A stretch of 64,000 bases of DNA from Escherichia coli (GTDB taxonomy: Bacteria > Pseudomonadota > Gammaproteobacteria > Enterobacterales > Enterobacteriaceae): NCBI RefSeq assembly GCF_046105845.1, contig NZ_CP151004.1, one strand, 5' to 3'. Positions 3,235-63,318 of this stretch are shown piece after piece (position 1 is the first letter of the stretch; each line of letters opens with the position of its first letter). The position numbers and the translations under genes were made by a program. Under the pieces are notes generated by a model. That model was not told where the DNA came from. It ran no database searches and saw only the letters and a list, made by a program, of their open reading frames with translations.

Positions 3235-3939
3235 GTGTTAATGATCATAAAAAAAAGCGGTGGTCGCTGGCAGCTAAGCCTGCTGGCGAGTGTGGTAATC
3301 AGTGCCTTTTTTCTCAACACAGCTTACGCCTGGCAACAAGAATATATCGTTGATACGCAACCCGGACATTCCACAGAGCGTTACACCTGGGATAGCGATC
3401 ATCAACCTGATTACAACGATATTTTGTCGCAACGTATTCAAAGTAGCCAAAGGGCGCTGGGACTGGAAGTCAATCTGGCGGAAGAAACTCCTGTGGATGT
3501 GACCAGCAGTATGAGTATGGGCTGGAATTTTCCTTTATATGAGCAGGTTACAACCGGCCCGGTCGCGGCATTACATTACGATGGCACAACCACCTCGATG
3601 TATAACGAGTTTGGCGACAGTACTACCACGCTGGCCGATCCGTTATGGCATGCCAGCGTGAGTACCTTAGGCTGGCGTGTTGACTCCCGGCTTGGCGATC
3701 TCCGACCCTGGGCGCAAATCAGCTATAACCAGCAATTTGGCGAGAATATCTGGAAGGCGCAATCAGGCCTGAGCCGGATGACGGCGACAAACCAGAACGG
3801 CAACTGGCTGGATGTCACCGTAGGCGCTGATATGTTGCTCAATCAAAATATTGCTGCCTATGCTGCGCTATCTCAGGCAGAAAATACCACTAACAATAGC
3901 GACTATCTGTATACGATAGGGGTTAGTGCCAAATTTTAA
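3235..3939 (+). CDS. yhjY: Predicted outer-membrane beta-barrel protein, ~232-234 aa
   Basis: ORF with signal-peptide-like N-terminus and aromatic C-terminal residue (…GVSAKF); position and sequence match recalled YhjY. Confidence 0.85.
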   Translation: MLMIIKKSGGRWQLSLLASVVISAFFLNTAYAWQQEYIVDTQPGHSTERYTWDSDHQPDYNDILSQRIQSSQRALGLEVNLAEETPVDVTSSMSMGWNFPLYEQVTTGPVAALHYDGTTTSMYNEFGDSTTTLADPLWHASVSTLGWRVDSRLGDLRPWAQISYNQQFGENIWKAQSGLSRMTATNQNGNWLDVTVGADMLLNQNIAAYAALSQAENTTNNSDYLYTIGVSAKF

Positions 3940-4053
3940 CGTTATATATACAATTGAAACCATTGGATAACAACAGTTGTGGCGATAGTGGGTGCTAACT
4001 TACTAAATAATAAATTTGGTGAATAATTGTCGAGTCATTCATTCCTGAACTAA

Positions 4054-4084
4054 TGCATTTCATTCTGTTCTGATGGCATTTCAT
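4054..4084 (+). promoter_or_regulatory. Direct repeat tGCATTTCAT-N11-GGCATTTCAT, candidate YpdB (PyrR) response-regulator binding site in the yhjX promoter
   Basis: Two 10-bp near-identical direct repeats separated by 11 bp, ~85-115 bp upstream of the yhjX ATG; matches the recalled YpdB motif. Confidence 0.5.
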
Positions 4085-4167
4085 GCCGTTTTTCCCCAGG
4101 CATAAAGTGCACTTCGTTATGGTTGTCAGCAGAGATTTTTCCTTTTTATTACTGCAGGAATACTGCC

Positions 4168-5370
4168 ATGACACCTTCAAATTATCAGCGTACCCGCTGG
4201 TTGACACTCATCGGTACTATCATTACCCAGTTTGCCCTTGGGTCGGTTTATACCTGGAGCCTGTTTAACGGCGCGCTTTCTGCCAAGCTGGATGCGCCGG
4301 TAAGCCAGGTCGCTTTCTCTTTCGGCTTGTTAAGTCTGGGGCTGGCAATTTCATCTTCTGTTGCGGGGAAATTACAGGAACGTTTTGGCGTTAAACGCGT
4401 CACTATGGCTTCCGGCATTTTGCTGGGATTAGGCTTCTTCCTGACAGCGCATTCTGACAACCTGATGATGCTGTGGTTAAGCGCCGGTGTGCTGGTCGGT
4501 CTGGCGGATGGCGCGGGTTACCTACTGACGCTCTCTAACTGCGTGAAGTGGTTCCCGGAGCGTAAAGGTCTGATCTCCGCGTTCGCTATCGGTTCTTATG
4601 GTCTGGGTAGCCTGGGTTTCAAATTTATCGACACGCAGCTGCTGGAAACGGTGGGTCTGGAAAAAACTTTTGTGATTTGGGGAGCGATTGCGCTGGTGAT
4701 GATTGTTTTCGGCGCAACGTTAATGAAAGACGCACCAAAACAGGAAGTGAAAACCAGCAATGGTGTGGTGGAGAAAGATTACACGCTGGCAGAGTCGATG
4801 CGTAAACCGCAGTACTGGATGTTAGCGGTAATGTTCCTGACTGCCTGCATGAGCGGCCTGTACGTGATTGGGGTAGCGAAAGATATCGCCCAAAGTCTGG
4901 CACACCTTGATGTGGTTTCCGCAGCCAATGCAGTCACTGTTATTTCCATCGCCAACCTTTCAGGTCGTCTGGTTCTGGGGATACTGTCTGACAAAATCGC
5001 CCGAATCCGTGTTATCACCATTGGTCAGGTGATTTCGCTGGTGGGTATGGCGGCCCTGCTGTTTGCACCATTGAATGCAGTGACGTTCTTTGCAGCGATT
5101 GCCTGCGTGGCGTTTAACTTTGGCGGCACCATTACCGTTTTCCCGTCACTGGTCAGTGAGTTCTTCGGCCTCAATAACCTGGCGAAAAACTACGGTGTGA
5201 TTTATCTCGGTTTCGGTATCGGCAGCATTTGTGGGTCGATTATCGCCTCACTGTTTGGCGGCTTCTATGTGACCTTCTACGTGATTTTCGCCCTGCTGAT
5301 TCTGTCACTGGCGCTCTCTACGACGATTCGTCAGCCAGAGCAGAAAGTATTGCGTGAGGCACATATTTAG
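4168..5370 (+). CDS. yhjX: MFS transporter (oxalate/formate antiporter-like), pyruvate-inducible, ~400 aa
   Basis: ORF-track frame 4123..5370 trimmed to ATG at 4168 (MTPSNYQRTRWLTLIG…); multi-helix hydrophobic protein recognised as YhjX. Confidence 0.92.
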   Translation: MTPSNYQRTRWLTLIGTIITQFALGSVYTWSLFNGALSAKLDAPVSQVAFSFGLLSLGLAISSSVAGKLQERFGVKRVTMASGILLGLGFFLTAHSDNLMMLWLSAGVLVGLADGAGYLLTLSNCVKWFPERKGLISAFAIGSYGLGSLGFKFIDTQLLETVGLEKTFVIWGAIALVMIVFGATLMKDAPKQEVKTSNGVVEKDYTLAESMRKPQYWMLAVMFLTACMSGLYVIGVAKDIAQSLAHLDVVSAANAVTVISIANLSGRLVLGILSDKIARIRVITIGQVISLVGMAALLFAPLNAVTFFAAIACVAFNFGGTITVFPSLVSEFFGLNNLAKNYGVIYLGFGIGSICGSIIASLFGGFYVTFYVIFALLILSLALSTTIRQPEQKVLREAHI

Positions 5371-5689
5371 AAATATTTATCTACTAAAACAACAAAAGGG
5401 GAGAGGCGTAAGTATCTCCCTTTTTGTATTTTTTGAGTGTAAATAATACAGTGTTATTGATAATTTGAATAAATTATTGGTTTTCATTTTTAATTTATAT
5501 GGTTTTATTCCTAAAAATAAAATTCTGTCTTTTTCTGAGCTAGTAACTTGTTGATTTTTCCGTATATTTAATATGATTCAAAAATTAATATTTAGTAAAA
5601 ACAATTTTATTTTTTGACGCCATTTGTATAATCTGCGCCCGTTGTATAAACAACATCAAGCATATTTATCTATATAAATGGAGTTATAA

Positions 5690-6214
5690 ATGAAAAAGGT
5701 TCTGTTTGCCTTATCTGCGCTTGCGCTGACCTCTACTTCCGTATTCGCAGCTGATGCGGGCGACGGTACTATCAAATTTACCGGTGAGATTGTTGATGCC
5801 GCTTGTGTTGTGTCTCCGGACTCTCAAAAACAAGAAGTTGTTCTGGGCCAGGTGAACAAGTCTGTTTTTACTGCTATTGGTGATAAATCCACAGCAACGC
5901 CGTTCAAAATCAAACTGGAAAACTGTGATATCTCCTCTTTAAAAAATGTGGAAATCAGCTTTAACGGCGTTGGCGCTACAGGGAACGAGAAACTGGTTTC
6001 TGTAAGCACTGAACCAGGTGCTGCAAGTGGCGTAGGTATCGGTATTTATGATAACACCAATACCCTGGTTGACCTGAATTCTGGTAAATCTGCTACCGTT
6101 CTGAAAGAAGGCCAGACCGTTCTCTACTTCACCGCTAACTATGTCGCTACCGCCGATTCAGTAAGCACCGGTTACGGTAACGCCGAAGTCGACTTCAACC
6201 TGACTTACAATTAA
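5690..6214 (+). CDS. lpfA: Major fimbrial subunit of a long polar fimbriae-type chaperone-usher operon, 174 aa
   Basis: Signal peptide MKKVLFALSALALTSTSVFA, conserved fimbrial Cys pair, C-terminal EVDFNLTYN donor-strand motif; GGAG RBS upstream; resembles recalled LpfA of Salmonella/E. coli O157. Confidence 0.88.
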   Translation: MKKVLFALSALALTSTSVFAADAGDGTIKFTGEIVDAACVVSPDSQKQEVVLGQVNKSVFTAIGDKSTATPFKIKLENCDISSLKNVEISFNGVGATGNEKLVSVSTEPGAASGVGIGIYDNTNTLVDLNSGKSATVLKEGQTVLYFTANYVATADSVSTGYGNAEVDFNLTYN

Positions 6215-6297
6215 TCGCCCCTAACAGGACGATCATCTCTCAATGGCAACAGAGACTCTGTTGCCATTATTCACACCAATGACTCAGGGACCGAATC

Positions 6298-6984
6298 ATG
6301 AAACGTATTAGCCTTGCCGTGCTGGCACTTTTAATGACCGCACAACAGTGTTTTGCTGGTGGCGTAGCCTTAAGTACGACGCGTGTTATTTATGATGGCG
6401 GCAAGAAAGAAGCGTCGCTGACCGTTGAAAATCATAATAAAAATGAAGAGTTTTTGATCCAGTCATGGATTGATGACGTGAATGGTAATAAAAAAACGCC
6501 GTTCATTATTACACCGCCATTATTCAAACTTGATCCCGATAAAAATAACGTCTTACGTATCGTCAATATTGAAGATACCTTACCTAAAGATCGTGAATCC
6601 GTTTACTGGATTAATGTAAAAGCGATTCCTGCGAAAAGTGCTGAAAATGAAAATAAAAACGTCTTACAGATAGCCGTTCGCACCCGTCTGAAGTTGTTCT
6701 ATCGTCCAAAAGGTTTGCCGGGAAGCAACCTCGAGGCAATGAAACAGTTACGTTTCCAGCGTCAAAATAACCAAATTGTGGTTAACAACGACTCCGCTTA
6801 TAACCTGACCTTTAATCAGTTTTCCGTTAATGGACAAAAGATTGAACGGGCGGGAATGGTTCTCGCAAAAGGGACGTTAAACATTAACCTTCCAGCCGGT
6901 ACAGGCAACGCGAACGAAGTGAAATACAGCATTATTAATGATTTCGGTGTTGCCGGCGAAATGCTGATGAAGCCGATCAACTGA
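6298..6984 (+). CDS. lpfB: Periplasmic fimbrial chaperone (PapD-like), 228 aa
   Basis: Signal peptide plus PapD-family-like sequence (…RVIYDGGKKEASLTVEN…, …VRTRLKLFYRP…); sits between major subunit and usher. Confidence 0.88.
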   Translation: MKRISLAVLALLMTAQQCFAGGVALSTTRVIYDGGKKEASLTVENHNKNEEFLIQSWIDDVNGNKKTPFIITPPLFKLDPDKNNVLRIVNIEDTLPKDRESVYWINVKAIPAKSAENENKNVLQIAVRTRLKLFYRPKGLPGSNLEAMKQLRFQRQNNQIVVNNDSAYNLTFNQFSVNGQKIERAGMVLAKGTLNINLPAGTGNANEVKYSIINDFGVAGEMLMKPIN

Positions 6985-7007
6985 CCCTTTTACAAGGCGC
7001 TTTTACT

Positions 7008-9539
7008 ATGCATTGGATGCATTTACCTCTCTATCACTACAGAGCGCATTTTTCCTTCTCACTGCTGGCATTAACGATTGCCAGTTCGTTACCTGCGTAT
7101 GGCGGAAAATTTAACCCTAAATTTCTCGAAAACGTTCAGGGTATCGATCAACACATCGACTTGTCGGTATACGACTCACCTGTAGGCCAGCAAATACCCG
7201 GTAAATATCGGGTTTCGGTGTTTGTAAACGAAGAAAAAATGGCTTCCCGGACGCTGGATTTTAGTACCGCCAGCGAAGCGAAACGCAAAGCCAGCGGTGA
7301 GTCGCTTATGCCTTGCCTTAGCCGGGTGCAACTGGAAGAAATGGGCGTGCGCGTTGACAGCTTTCCGGCGCTGAAGATGTCGCCACCGGAAGCCTGTGTG
7401 GCGTTTGATGAAATCATTCCCCAAGCCACCAGCCGCTTTGATTTTAATACTCAGACGCTACATCTTTCCTTCCCACAAGCGGCAATGATGATGACCGCTC
7501 GCGGCACGGTTGATCCTTCTCGCTGGGATGAAGGAATACCTGCGCTGTTGCTTGATTACAGCTTTAGTGGCAGCAATGGACGCAATGAAGGTACAGGTTC
7601 ATCTTCAGATTCGACCAGTGACAGTTATTACCTGAACCTGCGCAGCGGTTTGAACGTCGGTCCGTGGCGTTTACGTAATAACAGTATCTGGAACCGTATC
7701 GATGGTCAAAACCAATGGGATAACGTTGGCACATCGTTAAACCGGGCGATTATTCCACTCAAGTCACAGATAACGCTGGGTGATACCGCCACACCTGGCG
7801 AGATTTTTGACAGTGTACAAATGCGCGGGGCGCTACTGGCATCCGACGATGAGATGTTGCCGGACAGCCAGCGTGGCTTTGCTCCGGTGGTGCGCGGCAT
7901 CGCCAAAAGCAACGCTGAAGTGAGTATCGAACAGAACGGCTATGTTATTTATCGTACCTTTGTTCAGCCGGGCGCATTTGAGATTAACGATCTCTACGCA
8001 ACCTCCGGCAGCGGCGACCTGACGGTAATCATTAAAGAAGCCGACGGAAGTGAACAACGTTTTATCCAGCCGTTTTCAGCGGTGGCGATTTTCCAGCGTG
8101 AAGGTTATCTGAAATACAGCCTGGCTGCCGGTGAGTATCGTGCGGGTAATTACGACAGCGATAAACCACATTTCGGGCAATTTACCGCCATGTATGGATT
8201 GCCGTGGGGGATGACCGCCTACGGTGGCGCATTGTTGTCGGCAGACTACAACGCTTTAGCGCTGGGGCTGGGGAAAAACTTCGGCACCATTGGCGCGGTA
8301 TCGGTGGATGTCACTCAGGCGAAAAGTCAGTTACGTAACAATGAAAAAGAGGAAGGCCAGTCTTATCGATTCCTCTATTCGAAAAGTTTTGATGGGGGCA
8401 CTGACCTGCGTCTGTTGGGCTACAAGTACTCAACCAGTGGCTATTACACCTTCCAGGAAGCAACTGATGTTCGCAGTGACGCCGACAGTGATTACCGTCG
8501 TTATCACAAGCGTAGCCAGATACAGGGCAACATTACCCAGCAACTGGGAGACTACGGCTCTGTTTATTTCAATATGACGCAGCAGGATTACTGGAACGTT
8601 GACGGTAAGGAAAACTCCTTAAGCGCCGGTTATCACGGTCATATTGGTCGGGTGAATTACAGTGTTGCCTATACCTGGACGAGAAGCCCGGAATGGGAAG
8701 AAGACGATCGCTTGTGGTCATTCAGTGTTTCAATCCCTCTGGGGGGCGCGTGGAGCAGTTATCGCATGACCACCGACCAGAATGGCAAGTCGTCGCAACA
8801 GGCCTCTGTCAGCGGAACGTTACTGGAAGATCGTAACCTGAACTATAACGTCCAGCAGGGTTACACCAGTAATGGCGTAGGCTACAGTGGCAGCGTCAAC
8901 ATGGGGTATATGGGAGGCTCTGGCAACATTGACGTGGGCTATAACTATTCCAAAGATAACCAACAGGTTAACTATGGCGTGCGCGGCGGTGTCATTGTTC
9001 ACAGTGAAGGTATAACGCTTTCGCAGCCCTTAGGTGAAAGCCTGGCAATTGTTTCTGCGCCGGGTGCGCGTGGTGGACATGTAGTAAATAGCAGCGGCGT
9101 TGAAGTTGACTGGATGGGCAACGCAGTGGTGCCTTATCTCACGCCATATCGTGAAACCATTGTGGAATTGCGCAGCGACACGCTGGGGCAAAACGTTGAA
9201 CTACAGGAAGCATTCCAGAAAGTCGTGCCAACGCGTGGTGCAGTTGTACGTTCCCGCTTTGATACCCGCGTCGGTTACCGTGTGCTGATGAGCTTAAAAC
9301 AGGCCAATGGCAACGCAGTACCGTTTGGTGCCACCGCAGCATTAATTGATGAGAGCAAACCTGCCAGCAGCATTGTGGGTGAAGAGGGACAGCTTTATAT
9401 CAGCGGGATGCCAGAAGAGGGCGAATTGCAGGTAAGCTGGGGGAACGAGCAGGCACAACGTTGCCGTGTGCCATTCCGCTTGCCAGAGAACAAGGACAAT
9501 TCGGGTATCGTGATGGTTAATGCGGTATGCGAGAAATAA
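7008..9539 (+). CDS. lpfC: Outer-membrane fimbrial usher, 843 aa, intact
   Basis: 843-aa uninterrupted ORF of usher size and composition; start may be at 7008 or the ATG at 7017. Confidence 0.88.
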   Translation: MHWMHLPLYHYRAHFSFSLLALTIASSLPAYGGKFNPKFLENVQGIDQHIDLSVYDSPVGQQIPGKYRVSVFVNEEKMASRTLDFSTASEAKRKASGESLMPCLSRVQLEEMGVRVDSFPALKMSPPEACVAFDEIIPQATSRFDFNTQTLHLSFPQAAMMMTARGTVDPSRWDEGIPALLLDYSFSGSNGRNEGTGSSSDSTSDSYYLNLRSGLNVGPWRLRNNSIWNRIDGQNQWDNVGTSLNRAIIPLKSQITLGDTATPGEIFDSVQMRGALLASDDEMLPDSQRGFAPVVRGIAKSNAEVSIEQNGYVIYRTFVQPGAFEINDLYATSGSGDLTVIIKEADGSEQRFIQPFSAVAIFQREGYLKYSLAAGEYRAGNYDSDKPHFGQFTAMYGLPWGMTAYGGALLSADYNALALGLGKNFGTIGAVSVDVTQAKSQLRNNEKEEGQSYRFLYSKSFDGGTDLRLLGYKYSTSGYYTFQEATDVRSDADSDYRRYHKRSQIQGNITQQLGDYGSVYFNMTQQDYWNVDGKENSLSAGYHGHIGRVNYSVAYTWTRSPEWEEDDRLWSFSVSIPLGGAWSSYRMTTDQNGKSSQQASVSGTLLEDRNLNYNVQQGYTSNGVGYSGSVNMGYMGGSGNIDVGYNYSKDNQQVNYGVRGGVIVHSEGITLSQPLGESLAIVSAPGARGGHVVNSSGVEVDWMGNAVVPYLTPYRETIVELRSDTLGQNVELQEAFQKVVPTRGAVVRSRFDTRVGYRVLMSLKQANGNAVPFGATAALIDESKPASSIVGEEGQLYISGMPEEGELQVSWGNEQAQRCRVPFRLPENKDNSGIVMVNAVCEK

Positions 9540-9543
9540 GGAT

Positions 9544-10599
9544 ATGCAGATGAAGAAGATATTTGCGAGTGCAATATTTTTTAGCGTAATTTTATTTTCA
9601 GAGGCACTTTACGCTGCAGATTGGGGACCATGTAAGATTGCTTTTGATGGTCCTCCATTCGATTATAGTTTCGATATCAGTCAGAGTATCCAGGAACCAA
9701 CTGAAAATAAGACTGGTAAAATATTAACGTCAACATGGAATTTGGGAACAAAGTACTCAGCATATTGTGAATGCCCTTCGAAGAATCCTGATGCCGGCAA
9801 ACCTACACTCTTTAAAGCTGATGTGAATTTGCAATCCGGGCATGCAACTGATTATTTCAAGGTTAATGATTTTTTAGACGTTACCACTAAGGTTTATGTG
9901 GTGTCATATGGTAATTGGCAAACTCCTTTTACGGATTTAAGTAACCGAACAACAGGTAAGGAGTGTGATCCGGATCATCCGGGAACAGGTTGGGCTACAG
10001 GAAGTAGAGGGGAGTTAAAACTATATATAGTTAAACCTTTTGTAGGACAACTTGATATACCTAAAACAGAAGTTGTGGCAATTTTTGGTACAAAGCAAGC
10101 GGGGGTTTATTATTCGACACCTTTATCAACAGTAAATATATTCGGTAATATAACTGTAACCCAAGGATGTGAACTTGCTGCGGGGACAACGCTTGAGATC
10201 CCCTTTGGCGAATATCAGGCTCATGACTTCAAAGGGCGTGCCGGACAACCGCCCCAGGGGGTACGAAAAATACAAAAAGAGTTAAGTTTTGACTGCAACA
10301 ATATTTCCGATGGAGTCAAAATCTATCTTAGCATTGAAGGTACTCCGAATACGGACTACCCCAGTGCAATCAGTTTGGGTAATTCAGATGTCGGCGCAGT
10401 TATTGAAGATGGGAAAGGCAATATCTTGAAGCCTAACGATAGCAATAGCTTATTGGAAATGGCTCCTGGTTCTCTGTATGACACGGTTAAGCGTACCGCG
10501 AAAACGACAATTACCGCCTACCCAGTCAGTACGAACGGGAAACTCCCCGCTGCAGGTGATTATAGCGGCATTGCTACCATACATGTCGAACTGGAGTAA
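9544..10599 (+). CDS. lpfD: Fimbrial minor subunit / putative tip adhesin, ~350 aa
   Basis: ORF following the usher with signal peptide MKKIFASAIFFSVILFSEALYA; start ambiguous (ATG 9544 or 9550; ORF track gives 9520, overlapping lpfC); visibly AT-rich. Confidence 0.8.
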   Translation: MQMKKIFASAIFFSVILFSEALYAADWGPCKIAFDGPPFDYSFDISQSIQEPTENKTGKILTSTWNLGTKYSAYCECPSKNPDAGKPTLFKADVNLQSGHATDYFKVNDFLDVTTKVYVVSYGNWQTPFTDLSNRTTGKECDPDHPGTGWATGSRGELKLYIVKPFVGQLDIPKTEVVAIFGTKQAGVYYSTPLSTVNIFGNITVTQGCELAAGTTLEIPFGEYQAHDFKGRAGQPPQGVRKIQKELSFDCNNISDGVKIYLSIEGTPNTDYPSAISLGNSDVGAVIEDGKGNILKPNDSNSLLEMAPGSLYDTVKRTAKTTITAYPVSTNGKLPAAGDYSGIATIHVELE

Positions 10600-10604
10600 C
10601 AGTC

Positions 10605-11126
10605 ATGAAGCGAACAATACTTGCGTTATGCCTGCTGCCTCTTTCCTTATCGACAATGGCGCTTACGGATTTGGGAGCGAAGGGTGATTTAAAATTCACT
10701 TTGCAGATCCGCCAGGGTGCCTGTGAACTGGTAAAAGACAATATTGAGGTAGACCTGGGAAGAGCGGTACTTAAACAGCCTGTAAGAATCGGAACAGAAC
10801 TTAATCCCACTACTTTTTCCATCGGTCTGAAAAACTGTAGCGAAGTTGTCAGGGCTTACGTCACCATGAATGGTACGCCCAATACGGACGATCCAAATCT
10901 TTTTGCGCTGGATGCGGGTGGCGCTACGGGCGTTGGGCTGAAAATCAAAACCGCTGCGGGAGTACAACAGTTCCCGGAAAATACGACACCGACGCCGATT
11001 GAGTTCGCGATTAACAGTGATGGCTCACATCAATTGAACTATATCGCCAGCTACGTGCCAATTCGCGCTGATGCAACCATTGGTCGCGCGGATGCAACGG
11101 TCGATTTTACCGTTCAGTACGAATAA
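10605..11126 (+). CDS. lpfE: Fimbrial minor subunit, 173 aa
   Basis: Signal peptide, fimbrial Cys pair, C-terminal …TVDFTVQYE motif; last gene of operon. Confidence 0.85.
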   Translation: MKRTILALCLLPLSLSTMALTDLGAKGDLKFTLQIRQGACELVKDNIEVDLGRAVLKQPVRIGTELNPTTFSIGLKNCSEVVRAYVTMNGTPNTDDPNLFALDAGGATGVGLKIKTAAGVQQFPENTTPTPIEFAINSDGSHQLNYIASYVPIRADATIGRADATVDFTVQYE

Positions 11127-11137
11127 TTTCGCTTCAC

Positions 11138-11161
11138 AGGGCTAGTTAACTAGCCCTTTTT
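11138..11161 (+). terminator. Rho-independent terminator downstream of lpfE
   Basis: Perfect palindrome AGGGCTAGTTAACTAGCCCT followed by TTTT. Confidence 0.7.
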
Positions 11162-13160: not shown

Positions 13161-13494
<334 letters not shown>

Positions 13495-13495
13495 C

Positions 13496-13584
13496 GTAGG
13501 CCTGATAAGACGCGCCAGCGTCGCTTCAGGCAACGGCACCGCACTTATTGTCGGATGCGGCGCGACCGCCTTATTCGACCTATA
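13496..13584. repeat. BIME: two REP (palindromic unit) elements in inverted orientation
   Basis: GTAGGCCTGATAAGACGCGCCAGCGTCGCTTCAGGC and GTCGGATGCGGCGCGACCGCCTTATTCGACCTAT resemble the E. coli REP consensus. Confidence 0.75.
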
Positions 13585-21492: not shown

Positions 21493-21559
21493 GAGAGAAA
21501 ACCCCCGCACGTTGCAGGTATGCACCTGACAACACCACGGGGGCTAATCTTGACTCTAG
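21493..21559 (-). ncRNA. rdlD: Rdl antisense sRNA, copy 1 (ends approximate)
   Basis: On the minus strand a CCCCCG…CGGGGG hairpin followed by UUUUCUCUC (intrinsic terminator) lies antisense to the ldr leader; boundaries inferred from the recalled ~66-nt Rdl length. Confidence 0.55.
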
Positions 21560-21609
21560 ACCACTCAAGAATAGCCGCGAAACGTTGTCATTACAACACA
21601 GGCGGCTAT

Positions 21610-21975: not shown

Positions 21976-22042
21976 GAGAGAAAACCCCCGCACGTTGCAG
22001 GTATGCACCTGACAACATCACGGGGGCTAATCTTGAACCCAA
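21976..22042 (-). ncRNA. Rdl antisense sRNA, copy 2 (ends approximate)
   Basis: Same hairpin plus U-tract as copy 1, 483 bp downstream. Confidence 0.5.
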
Positions 22043-22092
22043 ACAACTCAAGAATAGCCGCGAAACGTTGTCATTACAACTCAGGCGGCTAT

Positions 22093-57225: not shown

Positions 57226-57241
57226 AGTTTTACTCAGACAT

Positions 57242-57347
57242 AAAAAAAACCCGGCATAGGGGACCGGGAAGAGGATAGTCTGCCGTCTCCAGACTAATAA
57301 ACCGTTATAACACTCCCTGTTGGCACGGGAAACTTTGTGCTCTCAGT
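57242..57347 (-). ncRNA. gadY: GadY small RNA (antisense to the gadX 3' UTR)
   Basis: Minus-strand sequence ACTGAGAGCACAAAGTTTCCCGTGCCAACAGGGAGTGTTATAACGGTTTATTAGTCTGGAGACGGCAGACTATCCTCTTCCCGGTCCCCTATGCCGGGTTTTTTTT matches recalled GadY and ends in a hairpin plus U8 terminator. Confidence 0.85.
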
Positions 57348-57593
57348 AAGTTAAATATAACTTTTACTGGAAATAAGATCAGCCATTTTTTTATAAACAT
57401 AAGCTATACGCTGTGCGAAAATATATTCGTGCTGCATTTACTTATTATCAATTAACTGTTATGCAAAACTACTTTGTGGATAAATTTTGGTCCTACCAAA
57501 TCTGGCAGTTTTTGCGCTAAGAAACAGTCTGGCATCATTTCATTAGTATACTGAAATTGAAATAATCGCAGTAATGAAATATAAGGGATAGTC

Positions 57594-62980: not shown

Positions 62981-63318
62981 TTTAGTCCCTGAAAATTCTT
63001 GAGAAATAACGGTTCTTTAAATTGCGCGCGAGGAGAGATATGAGGGATTTACAGACCAGCGGCGTAGTGGGGTTGTCAGCCAGTAAGGTGGGATACAGGC
63101 ATAGTGATCGACATGGTGAGGTCAACGACAAAAAAAATGTTGCCGTTCTGCCAACAGTTCCTGCCAGCATTCGGGCAACGAAGGGTTCTACTGGTGGATA
63201 CATATACCAGGGGAATAAAGTCGTTTTAACCTCTCCTTTAGTAATCACCGGGGGTAATGAAATCAGCATCTGCATCCCTCGTCATGCCAGCCATCAATTT
63301 CAGTTGCTTATGTCCTGA

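Follow-up and report, generated by a model that had tools for sequence, protein, structure and literature searches.

The YpdB operator of yhjX and related LytTR operators

The closest described counterpart of the site analysed here is the YpdB operator in the yhjX promoter (PyhjX) of E. coli K-12 MG1655. The primary footprint and mutagenesis data for the yhjX promoter are reportedly those of Fried et al. 2013. A 58-bp K-12 PyhjX fragment, CGCGTCATTCATTCCTGAACTAAGGCATTTCATTCCGTTCTGATGGCATTTCATGCCG, spans all the nucleotides that are protected from DNase I, and two binding sites, A and B, were defined by SPR (Behr 2016, PMC4847170). With the phosphomimetic protein YpdB-D53E, the values obtained were about 1.2 nM with slow kinetics for the A-site and about 21 nM with fast kinetics for the B-site, and when site A was inactivated all binding was lost (Behr 2016, PMC4847170). 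Flanking nucleotides also affected expression, and a mechanism named 'AB-BA' was proposed in which the sites are filled in sequence, site B serves to recruit RNA polymerase, and clearance is rapid (Behr 2016, PMC4847170). General LytTR operators, namely those of AgrA at P2/P3, the VirR boxes, and the PlnC/D repeats, also have repeats of 9-11 nt that are 11-13 nt apart, and in them monomeric LytTR domains bind on a single helix face a short distance upstream of a weak core promoter; however, LytTR regulators are without a common consensus (Behr 2016). Another related operator is that of BtsR (YehT) at yjiY/btsT, which belongs to the sister pyruvate-sensing LytS/LytTR system and also consists of direct repeats.

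The repeat pair in the yhjX promoter of this strain

The window, that is the whole stretch of 64 kb of E. coli DNA that was analysed, carries a pair of direct repeats in the 228-bp gap between yhjY (3235-3939) and yhjX (ATG at 4168, stop at 5370), both of which are on the + strand. Sequence and RefSeq comparison identify yhjX (4168-5370) as the gene for a 400-aa MFS transporter, which the site would control. On the + strand, TGCATTTCAT at 4054-4063 is separated by the 11-nt spacer tctgttctgat (4064-4074) from GGCATTTCAT at 4075-4084. The downstream copy, site B, agrees with the 10-nt motif GGCATTTCAT at 10 of 10 positions and the upstream copy, site A, at 9 of 10, with T at position 1. When a repeat search was carried out, the repeat unit grew to 15 nt, covering 4055-4069 and 4076-4090, with 87% identity and a start-to-start distance of 21 bp. 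There are 84 nt between the end of the second repeat and the ATG of yhjX, and the distance in K-12 is equal. The window has a single occurrence of the phased pair GCATTTCAT-N11-GGCATTTCAT, and 100 dinucleotide-preserving shuffles gave no occurrence at all. The 9-mer taken alone with up to one mismatch gave 22 matches in the window compared to 24.6 expected and is thus not enriched. Since the single 9-mer is at chance level and the pair is not recovered in any of the shuffles, the non-randomness resides in the phased pair.

The preliminary description had given these coordinates, the repeat sequences, and the 11-bp spacing correctly, and it had matched them to the binding architecture of YpdB. 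The published site bears this out because the K-12 oligonucleotide ...CTAAGGCATTTCATTCCGTTCTGATGGCATTTCATGCCG has the same 11-nt spacing (Behr 2016, PMC4847170). That YpdB is PyrR was also right, the pair YpdA/YpdB being now named PyrS/PyrR (PMC7730263). It had proposed a comparison with the published YpdB footprint, and when this was done the 58-bp K-12 PyhjX fragment aligned to 4031-4088 on the + strand of the window with 55 of 58 nucleotides identical; the mismatches are at 4033 (C>A), 4054 (G>T), and 4066 (C>T), and the published motif does not differ from the one described. Repeats of 10 nt with a spacer of 11 nt are within the range known for LytTR operators in general, and the direct repeat, the 11-bp spacer, and the orthology to the DNase I-protected fragment of K-12 are the features of the YpdB/PyrR operator. 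The likeness to general LytTR operators extends to the predicted binding of monomeric LytTR domains to one helix face just upstream of a weak core promoter; in contrast to them, the repeat sequence is specific to the YpdB group. With the K-12 MG1655 operator the site shares the locus, the two repeats, the 11-bp spacer, the distance to the ATG, and also an upstream element, GTCATTCATTCC, and differs from it by the three substitutions and by having the lpf island instead of the yhjX-eptB spacer 3' of yhjX. Judged by this comparison of sequences, the site at 4054-4084 is the already known YpdB/PyrR operator of yhjX.

Site A, which is the published high-affinity site that is filled first, would cover 4054-4066 on the + strand in its extended form TGCATTTCATTCT, and site B, the published low-affinity site that is cooperatively filled after A, would cover 4075-4087 on the same strand in its extended form GGCATTTCATGCC; both assignments combine sequence, the published work, and conservation. 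It is established for K-12 in published papers that extracellular pyruvate activates the kinase YpdA. As in K-12, activated YpdB would then occupy the upstream site A first (here 4054-4063, or to 4066 in the extended form) and would help a second YpdB monomer onto site B (4075-4084, or to 4087). The complex on A and B would recruit RNA polymerase, giving a pulse of yhjX transcription that is followed by clearance. From their conservation, the half-sites would be two helical turns apart and would lie just upstream of a weak -35. We are confident in the prediction that this known K-12 mechanism, with A filled first, then B, and a pulse of yhjX, would hold in this strain.

The gene context agrees with that of other E. 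coli strains. The YhjX protein of the window is 99.5% identical to the K-12-like protein, and RefSeq genomes have the same genes annotated around the site, namely bisC, yiaC, tag, yhjY, yhjX, and eptB. The intergenic region has no indels when compared to a K-12-like genome, Nissle 1917, UTI89, 32A22CPO009 (NZ_CM151361.1), and the lpf-positive JNE151685, and the region was found in 5,400 of 5,426 complete E. coli genomes. In the K-12-like genome the coordinates are 2.50 Mb for ypdABC and 3.71 Mb for yhjX, and because these are about 1.2 Mb apart ypdAB would fall outside the 64-kb window. The name that RefSeq/PGAP gives to YhjX in many genomes is 'L-lactate MFS transporter'.

Conservation in Enterobacteriaceae and the extent of the half-site

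An exact-pattern scan for GCATTTCAT-N12-GCATTTCAT was carried out with one genome per species, and about 80 of the 120 matches listed were unrelated chance matches in other taxa. Among the matches listed, the pair was found 74-89 nt upstream of the ATG of a yhjX orthologue in at least 27 enterobacterial species representatives with YhjX proteins that are 82-99% identical. The genera listed are Escherichia, Citrobacter, Enterobacter, Leclercia, Lelliottia, Kosakonia, Pseudescherichia, Phytobacter, Pluralibacter, Silvania, Cedecea, Shimwellia, and Mangrovibacter, and one more site beyond the 27 ended at the edge of the locus. The 9-mers are invariant by construction of the pattern and the flanking columns were left free. 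Among these free columns, the TCC that follows site A, the GCC that follows site B, and the TTTT of 4089-4092 were invariant in the 27 species listed, and the spacer at 4067-4074 varied freely. From this contrast between invariant unconstrained flanks and a variable mid-spacer, we infer that each half-site is effectively about 13 nt long, KGCATTTCATKCC. In the same 27 species, site A begins with G in 19 and with T in 8, and site B begins with G in 8 and with T in 19.

The substitutions at 4033, 4054, and 4066

A4033 and T4054 are common to B2 strains such as Nissle 1917 and UTI89. At 4054 on the + strand, T replaces the G that K-12 has at position 1 of site A. By genome counts this T is a common natural allele: of 5,426 complete E. 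coli genomes, 1,654 contain the 39-mer 4027-4065 exactly as in the window, and 3,616 contain its K-12 form with G. Strain UTI89 carries this TGCATTTCAT allele but has C at the position of 4066. The chromosomal yhjX transcript of UTI89 surges on induction in the wild type and not in a btsS ypdB double mutant (PMC9765748). Since UTI89, with the T allele, shows induction of yhjX that depends on btsS/ypdB, the T4054 allele is compatible with function. It is expected, then, that the operator of this strain would work, T4054 being a frequent functional allele and the lpf island being located at the 3' end of yhjX.

The substitution at 4066 is of a different kind. It is a private C>T on the + strand, at the third base past the site-A 10-mer, and C is present there in all 5,400 of the E. 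coli genomes in which the region was found and in the site-A sequences of the other enterobacterial and Paenibacillus species examined. The exact 66-mer 4030-4095 was found in none of the 5,426 complete E. coli genomes, the best match having one mismatch, and a spacer-centred 36-mer likewise gave no match in these genomes, in a search where a genome with T4066 would have given an exact word of at least 33 nt. The allele of the window, T4054 together with T4066, was in no contig in a metagenome scan. The T at 4066 may be a rare natural variant of the operator or a sequencing error in the source.

Because T4066 replaces the invariant last C of the A-site half-site KGCATTTCATKCC, a weakened A-site is a live possibility. 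If so, the operator would be present but attenuated, and induction by pyruvate would be reduced or would need more activated YpdB. This is the only serious alternative, and it concerns the strength of the site and not its identity; we consider it rather unlikely, at perhaps the level where it is worth keeping in mind. The position, a flank base that is the final C in KGCATTTCATKCC, is C at site A in all 27 enterobacterial species listed, in five of five Paenibacillus, and in Chromobacterium, and the next eight spacer positions vary. The lack of T4066 in all the complete E. coli genomes and metagenome contigs points in the same direction, as do the published findings that inactivation of site A abolishes binding and that flanks influence expression (Behr 2016, PMC4847170). 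However, 4066 is not part of the published 10-nt motif, the flanks differ in distant systems, being gta in Clostridium and Romboutsia and cta in Limosilactobacillus, one B-site of Paenibacillus has the flank gcg, and the T may, as said above, come from an error in the source. A PDB search gave no YpdB-DNA complex by which contacts at position 13 could be judged. The strain thus provides a natural variant with which the reach of the YpdB half-site past the published 10-mer could be tested.

Binding by BtsR or a chance repeat

A second alternative is that the repeats are bound mainly by the other LytTR regulator, BtsR (YehT), and not by YpdB, and this we regard as very improbable. The BtsR operator at yjiY/btsT differs from the present site in having another motif and a 13-bp spacer, and it is absent at the yhjX promoter. 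The BtsR motif is said to be ACC[G/A]CT[C/T]A-N13, according to Kraxenberger 2012. A search for this motif in 3940-4167 gave no match even with three mismatches allowed, and the four weak matches elsewhere in the window are at chance level. The target promoter of BtsR, PyjiY, served as the control fragment in the work on YpdB (Behr 2016, PMC4847170). What speaks for BtsR is that the two pyruvate-sensing systems are interconnected and that in UPEC the kinase BtsS signals to YpdB, but this cross-talk is at the level of the kinase and YpdB is still the partner that binds DNA (PMC9765748).

That the pair is a chance direct repeat without function would fit the chance-level frequency of single 9-mer matches, but it can practically be dismissed since the pair was not recovered in the shuffles, is the orthologue of an experimentally footprinted site, and recurs with the same gene context in different genera and phyla, so that conservation and the published footprint already refute it.

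Other elements of the promoter

Upstream of the YpdB operator lies the element GTCATTCATTCC (4034-4045, + strand), which is inside the published DNase I-protected fragment and nearly invariant across the Enterobacteriaceae listed. Its positions G4034, T4038, T4039, A4041, T4042, C4044, and C4045 were invariant in the 27 species listed, in columns that were unconstrained by the search pattern. The CATTCC end of GTCATTCATTCC precedes the matching CATTCt end of site A by 21 bp. The element therefore looks like a degenerate third repeat that is one T short and in 21-bp phase with A and B. In the literature examined, GTCATTCATTCC was not found as a named site.

A motif search with alignment also revealed an inverted copy of the extended half-site, TGCACTTTATGCC, with two mismatches, at 4099-4111 on the - strand between site B and the predicted -10; about 8.5 matches of this kind with two mismatches are expected in the whole window. 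In the alignment, seven species, among them Kosakonia and Pseudescherichia, have this inverted copy as a perfect GGCATGAAATGC, and Leclercia and Lelliottia lack it. It is outside the published footprint fragment.

A scan with the sigma-70 consensus gave no strong promoter and no -35/-10 pair between site B and the ATG, and this is expected because the promoter would be activator-dependent. Since the scan found no promoter, the -10 was taken from conservation across species. The predicted -10 hexamer is TATGGT at 4118-4123 on the + strand, in which T and A (4118-4119) are invariant and the final T4123 is nearly invariant in an alignment of 30 sequences. Five Paenibacillus promoters have TATAAT at an equal distance from site B. 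Conservation would place the transcription start at 4130-4131 on the + strand, 7-8 nt past the -10 and within the invariant CAG at 4130-4132; a literature search did not find a mapped yhjX transcription start. If +1 is at 4131, site B would extend from -56 to -44 and site A from -77 to -65.

Two other candidates in this region were rejected. An alternative -10, TAAAGT/CATAAA at 4102-4109, is in columns that are not conserved, and an inverted repeat formed by 4041-4054 and 4148-4161, which is 86% complementary with 93 nt between the arms, was considered to be due to chance.

Around the Shine-Dalgarno sequence there is a conserved TGCAGGA...CTGCC at 4153-4167, possibly a small hairpin with GGA in the loop, the energy of which is non-significant (z -0.6). 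It is similar to a CsrA-type binding hairpin. The yhjX gene is under CsrA control.

The repeat pair outside the Enterobacteriaceae

The same scan showed that an identical repeat pair is present on the same strand, 6-457 nt downstream of genes for a LytS-type kinase and a LytTR regulator, in at least 11 non-enterobacterial loci. In the five species of Paenibacillus listed, the kinase shares 63% identity with E. coli YpdA and the regulator 61% with E. coli YpdB, and the site is followed by a YhjX-like MFS gene with 47% identity. The corresponding values for kinase and regulator are 59% and 57% in Clostridium arbusti, 56% and 60% in Chromobacterium subtsugae, and 52% and 53% in Romboutsia weinsteinii, where a gene of the CstA family is downstream. 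A CstA-family gene is also downstream in a Spirochaeta MAG, with 35% identity, and an LrgA-family gene is downstream in the two species of Limosilactobacillus listed, with 32-35% identity. Among the loci listed, an MFS target gene is present in Paenibacillus only. Since the pair adjoins genes for YpdB-like LytTR regulators in at least 11 non-enterobacterial loci, the motif is linked to the YpdB family of regulators.

These modules, in the order ypdA, ypdB, repeat pair, and transporter gene, share with E. coli the core GCATTTCAT-N12-GCATTTCAT with G or T before each repeat, and in Paenibacillus, Clostridium arbusti, Romboutsia, and Chromobacterium the regulators are 52-61% identical to E. coli YpdB. 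They differ from E. coli in that the site directly follows the regulator gene and kinase, regulator, and target are contiguous, whereas ypdABC and yhjX of E. coli are far apart on the chromosome. The comparison points to a joint transfer of regulator and operator between phyla. We lean, by a small measure, towards a joint interpretation in which the operator is fixed and travels with YpdAB-type LytS/LytTR modules across phyla and the arrangement in Enterobacteriaceae is derived, the target and its operator having become separated from the regulator genes. As parts of this same interpretation, close relatives of YpdB would use the core KGCATTTCAT with a repeat period of 21 bp and a KCC flank; the operator would precede three unrelated families of transporters, MFS YhjX, CstA, and LrgA, each with members that have been implicated in the transport of pyruvate; and the C>T at 4066 of the window would be a rare natural operator variant.

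The published survey was limited to gamma-proteobacteria (PMC5552118). In the literature searched, no paper was found that connects YpdA to Paenibacillus, and none besides Behr 2016 that connects the motif to LytTR regulators; nor did a description of these modules come up there. From our comparison, conservation of the YpdB operator seems to extend well past the surveyed gamma-proteobacteria, and the operator seems to precede different families of pyruvate transporters; if this is true, targets of uncharacterised LytS/LytTR systems would be predictable from sequence. For the window itself little is at stake, the site being a textbook-level regulatory site that is untouched by the lpf island.

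The lpf island downstream of yhjX

From homology breakpoints, the lpfABCDE island was placed at 5365-11138 on the + strand. From yhjY across the promoter and as far as codon 399 of yhjX, the sequence is homologous to lpf-less E. coli without a break; this homology ends at 5364, and homology to the yhjX-eptB spacer of K-12 resumes at 11139 with the conserved hairpin GGGCTAGTTAACTAGCCCTTTTT. The island replaces 96 bp of K-12 sequence that include the last three codons of yhjX. YhjX therefore ends in ...REAHI (400 aa) in the window and in the lpf-positive JNE151685, and in ...REAHGSL (402 aa) in K-12. The preliminary description had put the operator immediately next to the lpf insertion point, and this was wrong because 1,281 bp separate the operator from the near edge of the island, which is downstream at the opposite, 3' end of yhjX. 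Its concern whether the insertion had left the regulation of yhjX intact can be answered in the affirmative as far as the promoter goes, which is undisturbed with an intergenic region free of indels and homology unbroken to the island. Since the island is at the 3' end of the gene and homology is unbroken through the promoter, the insertion cannot have altered regulation at the promoter. What the insertion did alter are the last codons of YhjX and the context of the downstream terminator.

Directly past the yhjX stop, the island carries a hairpin followed by a U-run at 5392-5427 on the + strand, which folding predicts as a likely terminator; its energy is -21 kcal/mol (z -6.1), and none of 200 shuffles was as stable. 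This hairpin probably stops transcripts from PyhjX before lpfA. The native K-12 terminator hairpin of yhjX, GGGCTAGTTAACTAGCCCTTTTT (11139-11161), is now 3' of lpfE. At the nucleotide level the island is a mosaic when compared to the closest of the 5,426 complete genomes, with identities of 99.4% for lpfD, 93.3% for lpfA, and 87.9% for lpfE; the core genes that flank the island have up to 99% identity to other strains.

Other features of the window

Two tandem matches to the rdlD antitoxin sRNA are present on the - strand at 21496-21561 and 21979-22044, in an ldr/rdl type I toxin-antitoxin locus. By analogy with K-12, a single ldrD/rdlD copy would have been expected there. Rfam also identified a tRNA at 13161-13234, which by synteny is tRNA-Pro, RtT at 13272-13405, naRNA4 at 13499-13580, GadY at 57237-57350, and ES205 at 63130-63201.
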